From: an uncultured Thermoplasmatales archaeon
GTDB taxonomy: Archaea > Thermoplasmatota > E2 > DHVEG-1
Length of the DNA: 64,000 nucleotides
Assembly (NCBI GenBank): GCA_964636235.1
Contig: CAZWQV010000002.1
Coordinates: 37,607-101,606, forward strand
Direction of reading: 5' to 3'
The notes beneath the pieces were generated by a model, which saw only the letters and a list, made by a program, of their open reading frames with translations, was not told the DNA's origin and did no database searches. Below are positions 14,069-41,185 of this stretch, piece by piece (position 1 is the first letter of the stretch; each line of letters opens with the position of its first letter). The position numbers and the translations under genes are program-made.

Positions 14069-16267
14069 ATGCCAACAAAACATCAAATGGAATATGAGGA
14101 TCTTGAAACATTAATTGATACTTATCCTGGAGGTATGTGTCTAACTAATCTTGAAGGACATGTTTATGCGATCAATGATTATTTCACTCATGTTTTAAAC
14201 ATTTCAAGAGAAGAACTGGTTGGAAAAAAGGGATGGCATCTTATTGAAAAATTCTCCAGTGAAATACGAAAAAAAGAATTTCAAAAAGCGATTGAAAATA
14301 AAAAATCTGTTGAGTTTGTTGATTATGAGCGAGGAAGATGGTGGAAGACAACTGCAACTCCCATTGTAAATGAACATATTCAAGAAATAAAACTAGCTGT
14401 GTTTGTTAATGATATTAGTAGTGAAATGAAGAATGAGGAAAAAAAATTACTCAACCAAGAACATTATTTTTTATCACTTATAGAAAACACAATGGACATT
14501 ATCACTGTTATTGATAATGATGGAACAATCCTATATCAAAGTCCATCGTTGACAAAAATCTTAGGATATAAATTAAAAGAACGAATTGGTAAACACTTCT
14601 TTGATTTGATTCATGATGAAGATGTACCTGAAATGAAGAATTTTTTTAATCAGATATTAACAAAATCCGGTATAACAAAAAAAATCTCATATAGAATCAA
14701 AGATAAAAATGGTTCCTATCGATATTTTGAATCCATTGGATATAACCAACTGCAGAATCGATTAATTAAAGGAGTAATAATTAATTCGAGAGATATGACT
14801 GATAGGATAAATGCAGAGTCTAAATTACTACAAAGTGAATTGAAAAGTGCTGCTATTTTAGAAGCAATACCTGATCTTATGTTTACAATTGATGCTGATG
14901 GAACTTTTATTGATTATCATGCAAAAAGGGACATTTTATATGAAAAACCTGACTTCTTTATGGGTAAAAATATTAATGAAATATTACCCTCAGATATATC
15001 CAAAAAAGCACTTGAATGTATTAAAAGAACAATTAACACAGGTAAATTACAAAAATTTGAATATTCTTTAAAACTAAAAGGAAAAGAGCGTTGGTTTGAA
15101 GGAAGATTCGTTCTCAAGGGAGATAAAGAAGTCCTGATCATTTCAAGGGAAGTTACTAATGCCCATAAATCAAATGAACAAATAAAAAGGACCAAAGAGT
15201 ATCTTCAAAAAATTATTGACAATACATCCGAATTAATTTTTACAGTTGGATCAGATTTTAAGATAAGAACATGGAATGATACTGCTACACAAATAACTGG
15301 TATTAAAAGAAAACAAGCTTTGAATAGCGATATACGAACGTTTCAAGACATTGAAAATATTGAGGAACTTGTTCAATATATGAAAAAGGTTTTTCGTGAA
15401 AGACCTGCAATGATTAAGTATATAAATATTAAAACAAGATTTAACACAAAACGACTATTTAGAGTATCTGCTTCTATAATAAGAAATAATGCAAAAGTAA
15501 TCACTGATATTGTATTTCTTTGCCATGATGTAACTTTTATGGAAATTGCTAATTCTCAGTTGATCTCTGGCCTTGGTTATCTTGTTATTAATGAATCTTC
15601 TGAATATGTTAATAATATTACCTCAGGATTGATTCAGGATGGAAGAGAGGGGTTATTCTTTACAAGAAATATGATAAAAGAAGGATTAGAACATATCCAA
15701 CATGAAAAATTGCATTTTTCATTTTATTCCGAAAGCCCCGATTTTGATATTTCTGGCATTAAAAGTTTGGATGATATTTATAAACAAACCTCTGATTTTG
15801 TTAAACATCATGACCATGGATTTATATGTATCAATAGAATTGATTATCTAGTCATTCGTTTTGATTTCAAATCTGTCATGAATCTCTTTTATGAAATTCA
15901 TGATTTAATTCATCAACATGATATTTTATTTTTAATTTGTTTTAACGAAGATATGTTCACATCAAAAGAACTAGCACTTTTCTATCAAGAATTCAACCGG
16001 TTGCCTTCTCAAAAAATTACAGATATTTATCTCGATGCTAATTTATTTGAAATGCTTGAATTCATTTATATGGAAAATAATATCAATCGTATTGTTACTC
16101 AAATGAAGATTTGTAGATATCTATCGATATCAAAAGTTACTTCACAGAAGAGAATTAAAGAACTACTTTCAAAAAAACTGATTACATCGAAAAATGTAGG
16201 AAGAGCAAATCATTTATTTATAACAGAAAAAGGAAAAGAGTTATTAAAGCATTGGAAAAAACCATAG
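14069..16267 (+). CDS. Multi-PAS sensor / DUF835-like domain / C-terminal winged-HTH one-component regulator
   Basis: Three PAS-like repeats (starting ~res 30, 150, 280) and a later region resembling DUF835 (FICINRIDYLVIRFDF...ILFLICFNEDMF). The C-terminal wHTH is ICRYLSISKVTSQKRIKELLSKKLI. Start chosen at the ATG at 14069, preceded by ggaggag. Confidence 0.6.
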   Translation: MPTKHQMEYEDLETLIDTYPGGMCLTNLEGHVYAINDYFTHVLNISREELVGKKGWHLIEKFSSEIRKKEFQKAIENKKSVEFVDYERGRWWKTTATPIVNEHIQEIKLAVFVNDISSEMKNEEKKLLNQEHYFLSLIENTMDIITVIDNDGTILYQSPSLTKILGYKLKERIGKHFFDLIHDEDVPEMKNFFNQILTKSGITKKISYRIKDKNGSYRYFESIGYNQLQNRLIKGVIINSRDMTDRINAESKLLQSELKSAAILEAIPDLMFTIDADGTFIDYHAKRDILYEKPDFFMGKNINEILPSDISKKALECIKRTINTGKLQKFEYSLKLKGKERWFEGRFVLKGDKEVLIISREVTNAHKSNEQIKRTKEYLQKIIDNTSELIFTVGSDFKIRTWNDTATQITGIKRKQALNSDIRTFQDIENIEELVQYMKKVFRERPAMIKYINIKTRFNTKRLFRVSASIIRNNAKVITDIVFLCHDVTFMEIANSQLISGLGYLVINESSEYVNNITSGLIQDGREGLFFTRNMIKEGLEHIQHEKLHFSFYSESPDFDISGIKSLDDIYKQTSDFVKHHDHGFICINRIDYLVIRFDFKSVMNLFYEIHDLIHQHDILFLICFNEDMFTSKELALFYQEFNRLPSQKITDIYLDANLFEMLEFIYMENNINRIVTQMKICRYLSISKVTSQKRIKELLSKKLITSKNVGRANHLFITEKGKELLKHWKKP

Positions 16268-32368: not shown

Positions 32369-34438
32369 ATGAAAAAAAATGCTTTGTTACTAGTCTCATC
32401 TGTCATTTTTTTATTAATAACTCCTCTTTCATTGGCAGCAATTACCAATGTAAATAGTATCAAACTAAGCTCGAATAACCCCTTCTTTCCACTTTATTCA
32501 AAAGATACCTATATGGTGGAAATGAGAGATGGTATTCATCTAGCAACCGATATCTATTTTCCTGATAATACAACAAAACAAATGGGAAGTATATTGATTC
32601 GAACTCCATATAATAAAAAAAATATGAATATGGGCGATTGGGCCGATGCCGGATGGCCAACCATTGTTCAAGATATGCGAGGACGATATGAATCTGAAAG
32701 CGCGGATACTGTTTTTAGAAATGCTCATACTGATGGTCCCGATACATTAGAATGGATTGCTTCACAGTCATGGTCAAATGGTAAAATTGCAACCTATGGC
32801 GGATCGGCTCTTGGGATAAATCAATACTATATGGCGGGTGCAAATCCAGAAAATCTTGCCTGTCAATACATACAAGTTGCCACACCAAATTTACATAATC
32901 ATGCTGTATTTCAAGGTGGTCAATTTCGCCTAGCAATGATTGAAGGCTGGTTAAAAGGTCAAAACAGTCTTTTTGTCTTACCAGAACTTATTTCCCATGA
33001 AAATTATACAATGGATTATTGGACCAACACATCACTTGAAGATAATTGGTCAGATATCCATGTACCCGCGATTCATAGTGGAGGTTGGTATGATTGTTTT
33101 ACTCAAGGAACTCTTAATGGATTTATGGGGTATCAATATTTAGGTGGTATTGGTGCCAAAGGGCAATCAAAGCTTATCATGGGACCTTGGACTCATGGGG
33201 CAAGTCTGCAAGCCGGCGAATTGCAATATCCTGAAAATGCATTACCTGATTTTCCATTTGAATTATTTGTAGATATGATCTATACATTTACGGAAAACGG
33301 AGAATATAATGGTCCTATAGATTATCAGAAATGGCCTGCGGTTTCATATTATGTTATGGGTGATGTAGAAGATTTTGACGCTCCAGGAAATGAATGGAGA
33401 TTTTCAGATAAATGGCCTATAGCATCAAATGAGCAACCATGGTATTTTCATAATGATGGTAGTTTATCCATTGACCGATCTATATCAAATGAAGATTTAA
33501 CATATTTATATGATCCTACCGATCCGGTTCTAACAGTTGGTGGACAAAACTTGAATCTTCCACGTGGCCCCTATGATCAACGATCAGTCGAAAATCGAGA
33601 GGATGTCCTTGTATTTTCTAGCTCAATGCTGGAGGAACCTTATGAGGCTACAGGGCCAATTAATGCATCATTATTTGTTTCATCAAATTGCCAAGATACT
33701 GATTTTACAGTAAAATTATGTGATGTATACCCTGATGGCCGATCAATGCTGATAACAGATGGAATACTTCGAATGAGAAATCGTAATGGTTTGGATCATT
33801 GGGAGTTTATGAATCCTGAGGAAATTTATGAAATAAAAGTAAGTCTTTGGAGTACATCATATATATGGAATGTGGGTCATAAGATAAGAGTATCAATTTC
33901 ATCATCAAATTATCCTCGGTTTTTAGCAAATCCAAACACAAAAGATGCGATTAAAGGAAACAATACCTATAAGGTGGCAGAAAATACATTGTACATTGGA
34001 GATGCTTATCCTTCATGTATCATACTTCCTACAATTGAAAAACAATCGAGCAATCCCCCCAATAAGCCTTTACCTGCTGATGGCCCTGTATCTGGAAAAT
34101 ATTTCACTGAATACATCTATGAATCCAATAGTATTGATCCTGACGGGGATAAAGTATATTTACTTTTTGATTGGGGTGATGGATCACGGAGTGGTTGGGT
34201 TGGCCCATTTCTATCTGGTGAAATAGGATCGGCCTCACATATCTGGTCAGGTTTTGGTGAAAAATCATATCAAATAAGAGTAAAAGCAAAAGATACCCAT
34301 GATGTTGTAAGTGATTGGTCTGAATCGATTACCATAACCCTTCCAAAAAATAAGGAATTTCAATTTCTCCATGATTTATTTGTGCGTTTATTTAATGATA
34401 AAATTCAGCATTTAAACCTAATAGAACTTTTAACATAA
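32369..34438 (+). CDS. secreted CocE/NonD-family (X-Pro dipeptidyl-peptidase, S15) hydrolase with C-terminal PKD domain
   Basis: Signal peptide. Alpha/beta hydrolase region with the GGSALG nucleophile elbow and a CocE/NonD C-terminal beta-sandwich. C-terminal PKD-like FDWGDGS...Y.I.V.A.D. Confidence 0.65.
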   Translation: MKKNALLLVSSVIFLLITPLSLAAITNVNSIKLSSNNPFFPLYSKDTYMVEMRDGIHLATDIYFPDNTTKQMGSILIRTPYNKKNMNMGDWADAGWPTIVQDMRGRYESESADTVFRNAHTDGPDTLEWIASQSWSNGKIATYGGSALGINQYYMAGANPENLACQYIQVATPNLHNHAVFQGGQFRLAMIEGWLKGQNSLFVLPELISHENYTMDYWTNTSLEDNWSDIHVPAIHSGGWYDCFTQGTLNGFMGYQYLGGIGAKGQSKLIMGPWTHGASLQAGELQYPENALPDFPFELFVDMIYTFTENGEYNGPIDYQKWPAVSYYVMGDVEDFDAPGNEWRFSDKWPIASNEQPWYFHNDGSLSIDRSISNEDLTYLYDPTDPVLTVGGQNLNLPRGPYDQRSVENREDVLVFSSSMLEEPYEATGPINASLFVSSNCQDTDFTVKLCDVYPDGRSMLITDGILRMRNRNGLDHWEFMNPEEIYEIKVSLWSTSYIWNVGHKIRVSISSSNYPRFLANPNTKDAIKGNNTYKVAENTLYIGDAYPSCIILPTIEKQSSNPPNKPLPADGPVSGKYFTEYIYESNSIDPDGDKVYLLFDWGDGSRSGWVGPFLSGEIGSASHIWSGFGEKSYQIRVKAKDTHDVVSDWSESITITLPKNKEFQFLHDLFVRLFNDKIQHLNLIELLT

Positions 34439-35174: not shown

Positions 35175-35307
35175 AAATTAAACAATAAATACTTAATTGC
35201 CTTTTTTAATTAAAACATTTGTAATAATAATATTTAATTATTTAATTAACTATAGAAAAATATATATTCTAGTAACTATTATTAAATTACTATTGGGAGG
35301 TAGACCA

Positions 35308-35958
35308 ATGATAATGAAGGGCAAAATATTATTTTTTGTACTGCTGGTGCTGCTAAGTACTGCAATATTGCCGTTTCCTGTCATTGCTGGTGATGAGCAG
35401 AATCCTGAAATAGTAGATACAGTGGAAGATGCAAGATCGTATTTAGATATTGAAAAAGCATGGTTTTTTGAAGAAGAATCAACTCCAAATTATCTCTATA
35501 CAACCATAAAGTTACGAAATAGTAATGTGATGATGCCAAAGCAACATCTTACTGTTCATTGGAAGATGGATGATGAAATCTATTGGACCATTTGCTCAGT
35601 AGGTTATGAGGCTGGGCAATGGATACATTTTAATTTTGGCATTGGAATTGATTACTGGTATGATAGGGCAGAAGTATTTGACATTGAGGAAGAATTTGAT
35701 ACGGAATCAGGAACAGTAATATGTAAAATACCAAAATCATTATTAAATGATCCTGAACCAGGTACAATTCTAAAAGATACTTCATAAGAAGGTTTTGAAC
35801 GATTTGGCTTTTTCGGTCGATTGGGTTTCAGTCCAAAAATGAGAAGCATTCTTTTTTATAAACTTGGACTTCCAGAGTTACAAGTACAGGATTTTGCACC
35901 AAATATAATCCCTGGTGAAGAAAGAGAATATGGAAAGGATTATATTATACAATACTAG
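35308..35958 (+). pseudogene. Secreted protein, tandem-family member 1, interrupted by in-frame TAA at 35785-35787
   Basis: Signal peptide and AGDE..PEIVD motif. After the TAA the same frame continues FERFGFFGRLGF...GKDYIIQY*, matching the conserved C-terminus of members 2-4. Confidence 0.5.
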
Positions 35959-35971
35959 GGGGAATAATGAA

Positions 35972-36583
35972 ATGAAAAAATGTATATGTATTTTTGTTAT
36001 GGCGCTGTTTCTCACAACGATTTTGCCAATAACAGTAACTGCGGGTGATGAATCTGATCCAGAGATTGTTGATGGTGAAGACACGGCAGTATTTGATTAC
36101 TTGGATATTATATCTGCTTGGTTCTATGAAAAAGAAAATGAACCAGATTATCTTTATACTGCACTTAAATTAAAGGAAATCAATACGCTTAAATTTAAAC
36201 AACACCTGACTGTTCATTGGGAGCATAATGGAGTTGAATGCGCATCTTCGCTGGTGATAGGATATGGTGAACCATGGTATGCATTTATAGCAGGTTATGG
36301 TCATGGATTTTGGTTTCAAGAGCATTATGTTGAAATTGAGGGCAACTTTGATACTGAAACAGGTATTATTACCTGTAAAATCCCTAAAAGTATCATAAAT
36401 AATCCACAAATAGGTGATGTATTAACAAAAACAAAAGCACTTACCTTCCAACGGTTTGGATTTATTGGAAGATTAGGATTCGATCGTTTTTGGTTTTCAG
36501 GTTTAGTATCACTGATCACTGGAAAGGTTCCGTGGGATGGAGCACCATATGAGTATGGGAGAGATTATATTATTCAATATTAA
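35972..36583 (+). CDS. Secreted protein, tandem-family member 2 (unknown family)
   Basis: Signal peptide and AGDESDPEIVD. Conserved Y.DI...F.E....P.YLY, HLTVHW, GxITCKIPK, FQRFGFIGRLGF and C-terminal DYIIQY. Start chosen at ATG 35972. Confidence 0.5.
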   Translation: MKKCICIFVMALFLTTILPITVTAGDESDPEIVDGEDTAVFDYLDIISAWFYEKENEPDYLYTALKLKEINTLKFKQHLTVHWEHNGVECASSLVIGYGEPWYAFIAGYGHGFWFQEHYVEIEGNFDTETGIITCKIPKSIINNPQIGDVLTKTKALTFQRFGFIGRLGFDRFWFSGLVSLITGKVPWDGAPYEYGRDYIIQY

Positions 36584-36595
36584 AAGAGGGAAAAA

Positions 36596-37213
36596 ATGAA
36601 AAGAAAATTAATTGGAATATATATTGTTTTTATATTTATAAGCACAAGTATGTCAACCATGTTTGTGTTAGCTGATGAGCCAGAACCGCAAATAACTGAT
36701 CCAACTAGAGATGCATTTGGCTATATCGATATTGTGGATATTTTTTTTGAAAAACAAGAAACCCCTGAATTTCTTTGTGTATCAATGAAAATAAGTGAAC
36801 CATCTTTTTCAACATTTCAGCAAACATTTGCTGTTTTCTGGAAATATGATAAAGTTCAATATTCTTGTGGCCTTCATCTAGGATTCAGACCAAAGGATTG
36901 GGAAGCATATAATGCAGGTAAATATGAACGTGGAAAACGAAATCAGGATCTCCAAGATATCGAAGGCGACTATGATTTTGAAGATGGTGTCATTACATGG
37001 ACTATTCCAAAAGAACTTATTGGAAGTCCATCAAAAGGTGATGTATTATATGATACCTGGTCAAATGCGTTTAGACGGCTCGGTTTTATTGGAAGAATTG
37101 GTTTTACTCGCATTATCCTTGATAAAATTATCTTAAATGTATTTGATAATAACATGTGGGATTATGCGCCAGCAGAAGGAAGCTATGGTGATAATTATAC
37201 AATTCAATATTAA
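36596..37213 (+). CDS. Secreted protein, tandem-family member 3
   Basis: Signal peptide. Shares family motifs and C-terminal AFRRLGFIGRIGFTR ... DNYTIQY. Highly similar at the nucleotide level to member 4. Confidence 0.5.
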   Translation: MKRKLIGIYIVFIFISTSMSTMFVLADEPEPQITDPTRDAFGYIDIVDIFFEKQETPEFLCVSMKISEPSFSTFQQTFAVFWKYDKVQYSCGLHLGFRPKDWEAYNAGKYERGKRNQDLQDIEGDYDFEDGVITWTIPKELIGSPSKGDVLYDTWSNAFRRLGFIGRIGFTRIILDKIILNVFDNNMWDYAPAEGSYGDNYTIQY

Positions 37214-37246
37214 AAATAGTATATATGGAAAAATTGAGGTGAATAA

Positions 37247-37855
37247 ATGAGAAGAAAATTAATTGGAATATATCTGGTCTTCATATTTATAAGTTCAAGT
37301 ATGTCAACCATGTTTGTGCAAGCTGATGATCAAGAGCCACAGATCACAGATCAAACCGGTGACGCCTTTGGCTATATCGATATTGTGGATATTGAGTTTT
37401 TTGAAAAAGAGGAAGCTCCAGAATATCTTTATGTTTCAATGCAGATTAATGATCCTTCATTTACCACGTTTCAGCAAACCTTTGCTGTTTTTTGGAAACT
37501 CAATGGCACAGAATATTCATGCAGTTTACATAGGGGATTTAGTTTGAAATATTGGGATAGATACACTGCGGGAATAAGCAGAACTCGAAATCATAATGAT
37601 ATAAATGGAACGTACAATATGCAAACCGGTGTTATAACATGGAAGGTTCCAAAAGAATTCATTGGAGATCCTGAAAAAGGGGATGTTTTATATGACACCT
37701 GGTCAAACGCATTTAGAAGATTAGGGTTCATTGGAAGAATAGGTTTTACCCGCTATATCCTTGATGCAGTTATTTTGAAAGTATTTAATAATAACATGTG
37801 GGATTATGCTCCAGGAGAAGATAGTTACGGAGATAACTATATAATTAAATATTAA
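37247..37855 (+). CDS. Secreted protein, tandem-family member 4
   Basis: Near-duplicate of member 3. Followed by a T-rich terminator-like run (tcctgttttttttattctttttc around 37893). Confidence 0.5.
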   Translation: MRRKLIGIYLVFIFISSSMSTMFVQADDQEPQITDQTGDAFGYIDIVDIEFFEKEEAPEYLYVSMQINDPSFTTFQQTFAVFWKLNGTEYSCSLHRGFSLKYWDRYTAGISRTRNHNDINGTYNMQTGVITWKVPKEFIGDPEKGDVLYDTWSNAFRRLGFIGRIGFTRYILDAVILKVFNNNMWDYAPGEDSYGDNYIIKY

Positions 37856-38058
37856 AAAAGAACAACTAAAACCACTCTGATAAAGAAGGATAATAAAAAA
37901 ATCCTGTTTTTTTTATTCTTTTTCTTTTAGTTTCAATTCGTTTACAATCAGATTTGCAATAAAAGGGTTAATTATTATAACAAAACAGGATATATTTAGG
38001 GATACTAAACTAGATTTTTGCTCATGATAAAAACATGAGTGAAAGATTGGAATCCCAT

Positions 38059-40816: not shown

Positions 40817-41185
40817 TTAAATTTTTGAATGCGAAAATCCTGTGCAGATACCTGCAACTTGGACAACACCTATCTGGCCAGGTTCACTCATATACATTAA
40901 ATTGCTTGGTTTAAATCTCACTTCTTTCAAGCCCATTAATACACCTGAGTCTTTTATAATAAGTCCACGATCATAATATGCAAGAACAATTGCTTTACCT
41001 TGCACATAGTTGCCGACTTCTTTTGGATTTAACAATAATCCCGCGATAAATGTTATACCAATAAGAGACTGTGGCTCTGCAATATCACTTTGTATCATTA
41101 CTTCAGTACTTGCTTGGCTTACTGCAAGTGGTATTGAAGTAAATAATAGCATACACAGGAATCCTGCGATATATATTTTTTTCAT
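40817..41185 (-). CDS. hypothetical secreted protein
   Basis: N-terminal signal peptide; no recognisable domain. Confidence 0.3.
   Translation of the reverse strand: MKKIYIAGFLCMLLFTSIPLAVSQASTEVMIQSDIAEPQSLIGITFIAGLLLNPKEVGNYVQGKAIVLAYYDRGLIIKDSGVLMGLKEVRFKPSNLMYMSEPGQIGVVQVAGICTGFSHSKI

Follow-up and report, generated by a model that had tools for sequence, protein, structure and literature searches.

CBM9 modules clamp the reducing ends of cellulose or xylan between two tryptophans, and gamma subunits of the EB_dh/NxrC type use Met/Lys or Met/His axial ligands, and their genes share an operon with those of the molybdopterin alpha and FeS beta subunits. Uncultured Thermoplasmatota of the MBG-D/Thermoprofundales and related groups abound in sediments; to our knowledge, next to nothing has been learned about their cell envelope or the means by which they capture substrates. 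Proteins of the DOMON-like group fold into a sandwich of 10-11 strands with a ligand pocket for haem or sugar (PMC4846438). Glucodextran_C has been assigned to the DOMON_like, CBM9-like proteins, though direct sugar binding by it has not been shown (PMC10074034). Our literature searches returned nothing on DOMON in Thermoplasmatota, nor on DOMON, CBM9, haem and sugar jointly. In the window, the whole 64,000-nucleotide stretch of DNA that was analyzed, four consecutive genes encode proteins for which a fold of this type is predicted. Because this is a known ligand-binding beta-sandwich, cell-surface binding modules are their most likely identity, and not a new kind of system. Specifically, we assign a probability of about 0.5 to the reading that they are free-standing copies of a lineage-restricted extracellular DOMON/CBM9-like domain, acting as non-catalytic surface binding modules. 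The features of the locus are as follows.

35175-35307, + strand: AT-rich spacer of 133 nt, 5' of member 1, with GGGAGG at its end (from sequence)
35308-35958, + strand: member 1 (subfamily C), pseudogenized in this strain (from sequence, translation and sister-strain comparison)
35972-36583, + strand: member 2 (203 aa, subfamily A), with a signal peptide and a predicted DOMON/CBM9-like sandwich
36596-37213, + strand: member 3 (205 aa, subfamily B; from sequence, translation and profile score)
37247-37855, + strand: member 4 (202 aa, subfamily B; from sequence, translation and profile score)
37907-37929, + strand: T-rich run 3' of member 4, between convergent genes (from sequence)

The tandem array of paralogs proposed in the original prediction is present as four co-directional genes on the + strand (35308-37855) with products of ~200 aa. 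Pairwise protein identity between the members ranges from 30 to 70%, and each open reading frame matched a profile built from homologues at E values of 2.7e-54 to 1.2e-94, a likeness far beyond chance. Members 3 and 4, by comparison, are not the near-identical products of a recent duplication that had been claimed, as they share 75.3% of their DNA and 70.4% of their protein sequence. Gaps of 13 nt (counted from the corrected end of member 1 at 35958), 12 nt and 33 nt separate the genes, and each contains a purine-rich motif ahead of the ATG. The spacer at 35175-35307 presumably contains the promoter and ribosome-binding site serving all four genes, and the T-rich run at 37907-37929 would be an archaeal oligo-T terminator; a bacterial-type promoter/terminator scan is uninformative for archaeal DNA. 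As anticipated, all four members carry a hydrophobic, signal-like N-terminus followed by (A)GDE/ADD-x-PEI/PQI-x-D, and the motifs Y.DI, P.YLY, HLTVHW/FAVFW, ITCK/ITWK-IPK, F.R.GF.GR.GF and terminal DY.I(Q/K)Y were also found. In member 2, the insert comprises RFGFIGRLGF and a helix, and the chain ends in YGRDYIIQY; member 3 is missing one codon at the Trp50 position that is conserved across the family.

Member 1 departs from its description as a single open reading frame starting at 35197 and running through the tail. The upstream start, a TTG, adds a spurious extension, and translation likely begins at the ATG at 35308, behind the GGGAGG motif. The frame is split by an in-frame TAA at 35785-35787, after which the tail (EGFERFGFFGRLGF...DYIIQY) resumes in frame up to a TAG at 35956-35958. 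Base 35786 is A here, whereas two sister assemblies of ~99% identity (L039 and L040), in which the protein is intact, have C (TCA, Ser). Compared with L039, member 1 has eight nonsynonymous differences and one synonymous difference, and one of the changes (G128E) replaces a glycine otherwise invariant in the family. Because the sister assemblies have TCA and nonsynonymous changes prevail eight to one, member 1 is, on this comparison, a decaying pseudogene. A sequencing error at the single base 35786 is conceivable, yet the remaining changes would still need another explanation. The same evidence (TCA in the sister strains, the 8:1 ratio and loss of the invariant glycine) led us to reject recoding or read-through of the stop.

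An exhaustive profile search over 1.84 billion representative proteins recovered only 215 family clusters at 50% identity. All of the named sources are Thermoplasmatota, MBG-D/Thermoprofundales among them, and the family was found only in uncultured sediment archaea in these sequence data. At the sequence level, the claim that the family is unrecognized holds. Pfam gave no match for the four window proteins (E<=1) or for 52 family members (E<=10), NCBIfam yielded none at E<=1, and Pfam annotation is absent from all of several hundred homologues. Searches of the PDB with sequence profiles gave nothing for one alignment (A2) and, for a broader one (A4), only insignificant hits to the SHQ1 CS-domain (E 0.046); a word-index search with the broader alignment returned at E<=1 only unannotated family members. 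Even the Pfam models of the DOMON clan (DOMON, CBM9_1/2, EB_dh, CDH-cyt and Glucodextran_C) matched none of the 52 members at E<=10.

The C-terminal tail had been described as invariant, but across the family it is not. Only the final D.AP..YG.DY.I.Y segment is general, and 182 of the 200 short forms end in [YF]x[IVLMF]x[YF]-COOH, but GF.GR.GF occurs in 118 of the 215 relatives and in three subfamilies only. Conservation computed on 97 sequences, non-redundant at 60%, is high in a set of acidic columns (D45, 96%; D34, 95%; E53, 88%; D39, 86%; E31, 84%) and in lysine and tryptophan columns (K139, 93%; W50, 84%; W83, 80%; K66, 77%). The Met, His and Cys columns of the mature domain are all conserved at 33% or less.

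Both structural models are sandwiches of the DOMON/CBM9/EB_dh/Glucodextran_C type, and at the fold level they have the 10-11-strand Ig-like beta-sandwich of the DOMON-like superfamily. The extracytoplasmic location of that superfamily is matched by signal-like N-termini in the family and by PGF-CTERM or membrane anchors in relatives. In the models, the basic and then hydrophobic N-terminal segment forms a helix that stands apart from the rest, and the linker after it has low confidence. The suggestion that the aromatic C-terminus closes a beta-sandwich agrees with the models, which both render the last 20 residues as short strands with pLDDT ~90; F.R.GF.GR.GF is the least confident region of both monomer models (pLDDT 59-64). 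Foldseek searches of the PDB retrieved nothing below E 1e-3 and only antibody V domains, and the models lacked structural similarity to donor-strand/TasA-like subunits of archaeal surface filaments (threads, bundling pili, cannulae). The fold is already known, and contrary to the earlier proposal of a new protein system, the family does not amount to a novel type of molecular machinery; assignment to a known family, which the original prediction had named as grounds for refutation, largely succeeds at the superfamily level but not at the family level.

We propose that each protein would be exported via a Sec-type signal peptide and fold into a sandwich of ~11 strands, in which the strictly conserved N-terminal (PEI.D..GD...DI) and C-terminal (D.AP..YG.DY.I.Y) segments are modeled as high-confidence short strands. 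The acidic cluster conserved across the family would probably form a structural Ca2+ site, and the domain would act on the cell surface as a non-catalytic binding module. Its likeliest ligand is a glycan or another extracellular polymer, which the two conserved tryptophans and the conserved lysine could hold; probably, the ligand is a glycan and the module Ca-stabilized. A role at the cell surface, as originally suggested, is consistent with distant relatives in which the same domain is followed by an Ig-like domain and by an anchor, either PGF-CTERM or a C-terminal membrane segment. Five of these (P0256, P0249, P0257, P0264 and P0265) combine a signal peptide, the N-terminal family domain, an Ig-like domain and a PGF segment with membrane helix and basic tail, with a Pfam PGF-CTERM match in P0256 (E 2.3e-5), and present the same domain on an Ig-like stalk. 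Modular use is further suggested by one anchored relative whose gene is flanked on both sides by GH3 glycosidase genes that overlap it by 4 nt; two other relatives adjoin ftsZ. Glycosidase context is seen in that single relative only, and the surroundings of the array in the window are rich in peptidases, with no glycoside hydrolase gene nearby; these points count against the glycan-binding reading.

In the forms without an anchor, the window proteins included, the insert (RFGF-IG-RLGF and an amphipathic helix) is longer, with hydrophobic, aromatic and basic residues, and it could tether these forms to the membrane or to a partner. The median insert length is 46 aa in short forms and 30 aa in long forms, and its maximum 11-residue hydropathy is 1.9 and 0.22, respectively (p 7e-4; 7 long forms were set against many short forms related to one another). 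The modeled helix of the insert may simply pack against the sandwich. Tandem duplication and subfamily divergence have given each genome a small variable repertoire, as 31 Thermoplasmatota loci have arrays of 1-4 genes with mixed subfamilies in variable order, and one copy in this strain is already decaying.

The alternative that fares best, although we consider it unlikely, is a structural role, in which the paralogs would assemble together into an extracellular lattice, sheath or filament, with the conserved GF.GR.GF insert and the terminal strands as contacts from subunit to subunit. Distinct subfamilies do stay together in tight operons of divergent genomes, and the low monomer confidence of F.R.GF.GR.GF, the best-conserved subfamily motif, is what would be expected of an interface. 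Also in its favor are the S-layer-glycoprotein-like layout of the anchored relatives and a conserved secreted partner of ~150 aa beside five arrays; neither this partner nor extra family copies were found elsewhere in the window. On the other hand, array order and composition vary, single copies are common among the loci, fusion of the domain to a transglutaminase-like core or to PKD in other distant relatives recalls promiscuous binding modules, and this strain tolerates the loss of one member. Still more doubtful is the specific proposal that, in MBG-D-type Thermoplasmatota, the co-transcribed paralogs and the ~150-aa partner of other genomes form a hetero-oligomeric, membrane-associated surface layer or fiber via the RxGF-xG-RxGF insert and the terminal strands. 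If true, DOMON-like sandwiches would make up a previously undescribed part of the archaeal envelope.

The genes said to lie near the array are indeed there (HTH_10, Peptidase_S15+PepX_C and Transglut_core), and the PKD-like C-terminus attributed to the S15 protein was borne out indirectly. The idea that the array forms one system with HTH_10 and the S15/PKD peptidase fails, because their linkage is limited to near-identical genomes (L001-3, L039-40). More distant genomes (L004, L005) keep the array without the HTH_10/S15 linkage, and another (L006) is without the HTH_10 regulator and has one open reading frame grouped with the S15 peptidase cluster. Because synteny is confined to near-identical genomes, we rejected a regulon of the HTH_10 regulator, S15 peptidase and transglutaminase-like protein.

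We hold it improbable that the proteins are accessories of secreted peptidases (inhibitors, pro-peptide-like chaperones or a means of substrate capture for detrital protein). A secreted S15 peptidase precedes the array, 6 of the 31 loci have Peptidase_C25 genes no more than 5 kb away, C10 and S8 genes occur in L006, and MBG-D archaea have many extracellular peptidases (PMC6461988). Yet there is no consistent linkage with any single peptidase family, the S15/HTH_10 linkage is lost outside near-identical genomes (bar the one L006 frame), and the proteins bear no likeness to known inhibitor folds. Chance proximity is expected because these genomes are peptidase-rich. The protease substrate or inhibitor role once suggested thus has nothing behind it beyond loose co-location with secreted peptidases. 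Weakest of all, haem-b-binding DOMON cytochromes for extracellular electron transfer, comparable to EbdC, NxrC and the cytochrome domain of cellobiose dehydrogenase, are very improbable and were rejected on ligand conservation, because the usual axial ligands are missing when no Met, His or Cys column exceeds 33% and only the two lysines are conserved. In addition, no molybdoenzyme alpha/beta subunit or other redox partner adjoins an array in the window or the 31 loci.

The analysis delineates an unannotated domain family (~215 clusters at 50% identity), for which Pfam and NCBIfam have no model. Its DOMON/CBM9-like fold is recognizable, its hallmark motifs are clear, and it includes free-standing as well as anchored proteins. 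It offers an annotation handle for several hundred "hypothetical proteins" and small soluble targets for experiments on surface binding in these archaea.

Compared with the DOMON-clan Pfam families, the window proteins match no profile, stand free of any glycosidase, have a hydrophobic/basic insert of 46 aa and end exactly at the domain boundary. They share 9-10% identity with a CBM9 module (Thermotoga maritima Xyn10A CBM9-2, PDB 1i82), have no Pfam CBM9 match and, unlike the CBM9 modules of glycoside hydrolases (CAZy), are stand-alone, with one distant relative between GH3 genes. They differ from haem-b EbdC (2ivf_C), NxrC (7b04_C) and the CDH cytochrome domain in that the family is without conserved Met/His/Cys ligands and its genes form paralog arrays, not a redox operon, with no molybdoenzyme partners. 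Only the long distant members resemble the archaeal PGF-CTERM surface (glyco)proteins that are archaeosortase A substrates, whereas the window proteins, without PGF-CTERM, membrane helix or Ig-like domain, end at the conserved tyrosine of ...DY(I/T)I(Q/K)Y.

The four consecutive ORFs of the array (members 1-4) encode products that align end to end and score E 2.7e-54 to 1.2e-94 against a profile built from homologues of other genomes, bearing out the original prediction of tandem paralogues with shared motifs. The array and its features are as follows:

35197-37855, + strand: the four consecutive ORFs
Upstream of member 1: AT-rich spacer of 133 nt, read from sequence
35785-35787, + strand: TAA at which the member 1 ORF ends early
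35956-35958, + strand: TAG closing the remaining member 1 frame
36740-36745, + strand: site of Trp50 loss in member 3
37391-37396, + strand: site of Trp50 loss in member 4
Downstream of member 4: T-run, read from sequence

Each product opens with a basic and then a hydrophobic segment followed by (A)GDE/ADD-x-PEI/PQI-x-D, continues in order with Y.DI, P.(Y/F)L(Y/C), a (T/A)V(H/F)W strand, an I(T/I)(C/W)KIPK strand and F.R.GF.GR.GF, and terminates in D(Y/N)Y.I(Q/K)Y. Member 1, member 2 and members 3/4 share 30-45% protein identity. A profile search of the window returned no further family copies. A purine-rich motif precedes each ATG, and the short intergenic gaps (13 nt from the member 1 end at 35958, then 12 and 33 nt), spacer and T-run suggest that the four genes are likely transcribed as a single unit. 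The observation was genuine but overstated in three details. Members 3 and 4, described as near-identical in DNA, share just 75% of their nucleotides (70% protein identity); the other two details concern the tail and the early stop in member 1.

The members belong to an unannotated family confined to one archaeal lineage. A word-indexed search retrieved 262 clusters at 90% identity, all of ~200-210 aa, all named 'hypothetical' and none with a Pfam domain, and HMMER, run exhaustively over 1.84 billion representatives, retrieved just 215 clusters at E<=1e-3 (137 of them at E<=1e-10). Scanning one genome per GTDB species yielded 31 family loci, whose record titles are nearly all Thermoplasmatota, Thermoplasmata or 'Thermoplasmatales' MAGs; older and more generic names remain on three (Euryarchaeota archaeon UBA346, UBA33 and 'uncultured archaeon'). 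The 31 include SG8-52-3 and M9B1D, which are Thermoprofundales (MBG-D) genomes (PMC6461988). The G+C content of the window is ~31%. Clustering of the copies in loci resolved at least six recurrent subfamilies, which are mixed in arrays of 1-4 genes and in variable order (A-D, A-B, C-B-D, A-D-B and x-E-A; C-A-B-B in the window, where member 1 is type C, member 2 type A and members 3 and 4 type B). Single-copy loci are numerous, and several loci occur together in some genomes. General to the family are only the N-terminal PEI.D..GD...DI, the IPK..IG.P..GD.L strand and the terminal D.AP..YG.DY.I.Y; the GF.GR.GF tail, predicted to be invariant, is present in just 118 of 215 relatives. The pattern [YF]x[IVLMF]x[YF]-COOH ends 182 of 200 short forms, with Tyr as the last residue in 177.

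Beyond its early stop, the remaining tail of member 1 (EGFERFGFFGRLGF...EYGKDYIIQY) continues in frame. Two independent metagenome assemblies ~99% identical to the window (L039 and L040) have TCA (Ser) at this position and an intact protein, and Ser is likewise encoded in P0106, an orthologue belonging to a different species. Relative to L039, member 1 carries 8 nonsynonymous and 1 synonymous substitutions (G128E, at a family-invariant Gly, among the 8), member 2 has 0 and 3, member 3 has 5 and 3 plus a one-codon deletion, and member 4 has 5 and 2. In view of the Ser codons and these substitutions, G128E included, member 1 is a decaying pseudogene in the window strain. Recoding at the TAA was considered and rejected, given Ser in the sister assemblies and the 8 nonsynonymous against 1 synonymous changes. 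The array is in flux beyond member 1. Trp50, 84% conserved in the family, has been lost from both type-B copies, and member 3 is one codon shorter at this site than its L039 orthologue. Elsewhere, two overlapping, frameshifted ORFs replace one family gene (L016 7163-7797; L023 5887-6547), reflecting either recurrent pseudogenization or assembly errors.

In the AlphaFold2 model of member 2 (52-sequence alignment; pLDDT 85, pTM 0.78), the signal peptide forms a detached N-terminal helix, residues 31-160 build a sandwich of ~11 strands, and two helices (163-167 and 171-183) and short terminal strands complete the structure. Member 3, modelled independently (61 sequences, pLDDT 82), shows this arrangement too. 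Published work classes such structures as DOMON-like: sandwiches of 10-11 strands whose ligand pocket accommodates haem in CDH and EBDH and sugar in CBM9 (PMC4846438). Glucodextran_C, a CBM9-like member of the DOMON_like superfamily, is described without direct demonstration of its sugar binding (PMC10074034). The members are very probably exported DOMON/CBM9-like domains. Because a Foldseek structure search returned nothing significant and no DOMON-clan Pfam model matched the family, this assignment holds for the fold or superfamily and not for any family. The fold, an extracellular ligand-binding sandwich, is already known; only the family is new.

Fifteen relatives exceed 260 aa, and all of them close the domain with ...D.AP..GYG.DY.., precisely the point at which the window proteins terminate. 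In five, a PGF motif is accompanied by a membrane helix and basic tail (P0256 matches Pfam PGF-CTERM at E 2.3e-5); two have a plain C-terminal membrane helix. Most anchored forms carry the family domain N-terminally, followed by an Ig-like NPCBM_assoc, FixG_C or DUF11-type domain. The domain is also fused to a transglutaminase-like core (P0227, P0195 and P0270) or a PKD module (P0149). These architectures fit a promiscuous extracellular module, distal on anchored proteins or joined to enzymes. The gene for the anchored P0256 overlaps a GH3 glycosidase gene by 4 nt on either side (L041 1848-7527), the sole direct link to carbohydrate metabolism seen. Two different anchored forms, P0264 and P0268, are each convergent to ftsZ (L043 3325-5608; L044 3467-5757), suggesting a conserved housekeeping neighborhood for this subgroup; the neighbors of P0249 and P0269 are unrelated. 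In the window, the last ~90 residues (34150-34438) of the S15 peptidase (32369-34438) are PKD-like, with 41% identity (E 5e-17) to the PKD module behind the family domain in P0149. Both proteins finish in hydrophobic amphipathic tails that resemble each other (KEFQFLHDLFVRLFNDKIQHLNLIELLT vs. KALRKPIFRVFENHPILYRIINYILKL) and may serve for C-terminal anchoring or sorting specific to the lineage.

The best explanation is that the members would be free-standing binding modules of the cell surface, in a small repertoire that is still evolving. We give a binding module at the cell surface a probability of about 0.5, and a glycan as its ligand a lower one. In free-standing forms, the last sandwich strand is separated from the terminal motif by an insert (median 46 residues) that in types A-C comprises F.R.GF.GR.GF and an amphipathic helix and in other types different aromatic/hydrophobic stretches, whereas in anchored or domain-fused forms it is shorter (median 30) and mostly polar. 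Its maximum 11-residue hydropathy is 1.9 in short and 0.22 in long forms (Mann-Whitney p 7e-4, n=165 vs. 7), a test that is indicative only, given the kinship among the short forms. Residues 161-170 are the lowest-confidence region of both models (pLDDT 59-64). The insert may replace the missing anchor through peripheral membrane attachment or partner contact. An oligomerization role is just as plausible for it, as in a hetero-oligomeric envelope structure, the main rival to surface binding modules and a rather improbable one.

Across the compared loci, the array is not embedded in any conserved multi-gene 'system'. The HTH_10 regulator, S15 peptidase and transglutaminase-like protein, proposed as linked genes, lie beside it only in genomes sharing the entire neighborhood (L001-3, L039-40); more distant genomes (L004, L005 and L006) retain the tandem array in different surroundings. 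A 122-aa secreted protein without Pfam match (window 40817-41185, - strand) is kept in the close relatives L001-3, and L002 has an IS200-type Y1 transposase gene (14523-15017), inserted relative to its otherwise collinear sister L001 downstream of the array neighborhood. A conserved ~150-aa secreted protein (PEL.VG.FGAS...) without Pfam or NCBIfam match, not found in the window, directly adjoins family arrays in five loci (L005 9283-9732; L006 8604-9056; L010 3801-4232; L011 7249-7698; L013 535-1002). Like it, recurrent but non-constant neighbors are secreted NosD/right-handed beta-helix proteins in seven loci (L034 4769-5995, where the ORF overlaps the family gene start; L038 4061-5137; L016 192-2273; also L015, L022, L033 and L036) and Peptidase_C25 in six; a peptidase-accessory role is unlikely.

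Among 97 sequences non-redundant at 60% identity, the most conserved residues are D45 (96%), D34 (95%), K139 (93%), E53 (88%), D39 (86%), W50 (84%), E31 (84%) and W83 (80%), and the terminal G196, Y199 and Y203 are invariant wherever present. In this set, Met, His and Cys stay at or below 33% in every column of the mature domain. The family therefore lacks the usual axial haem ligands of EbdC, NxrC and CDH, which makes haem binding, and with it a role as a haem cytochrome, unlikely. The family presents a cluster of acidic residues that recalls the Asp-rich metal site of the DBH DOMON and, with two conserved Trp, would be consistent with a Ca-stabilized sandwich of the sugar-binding type.
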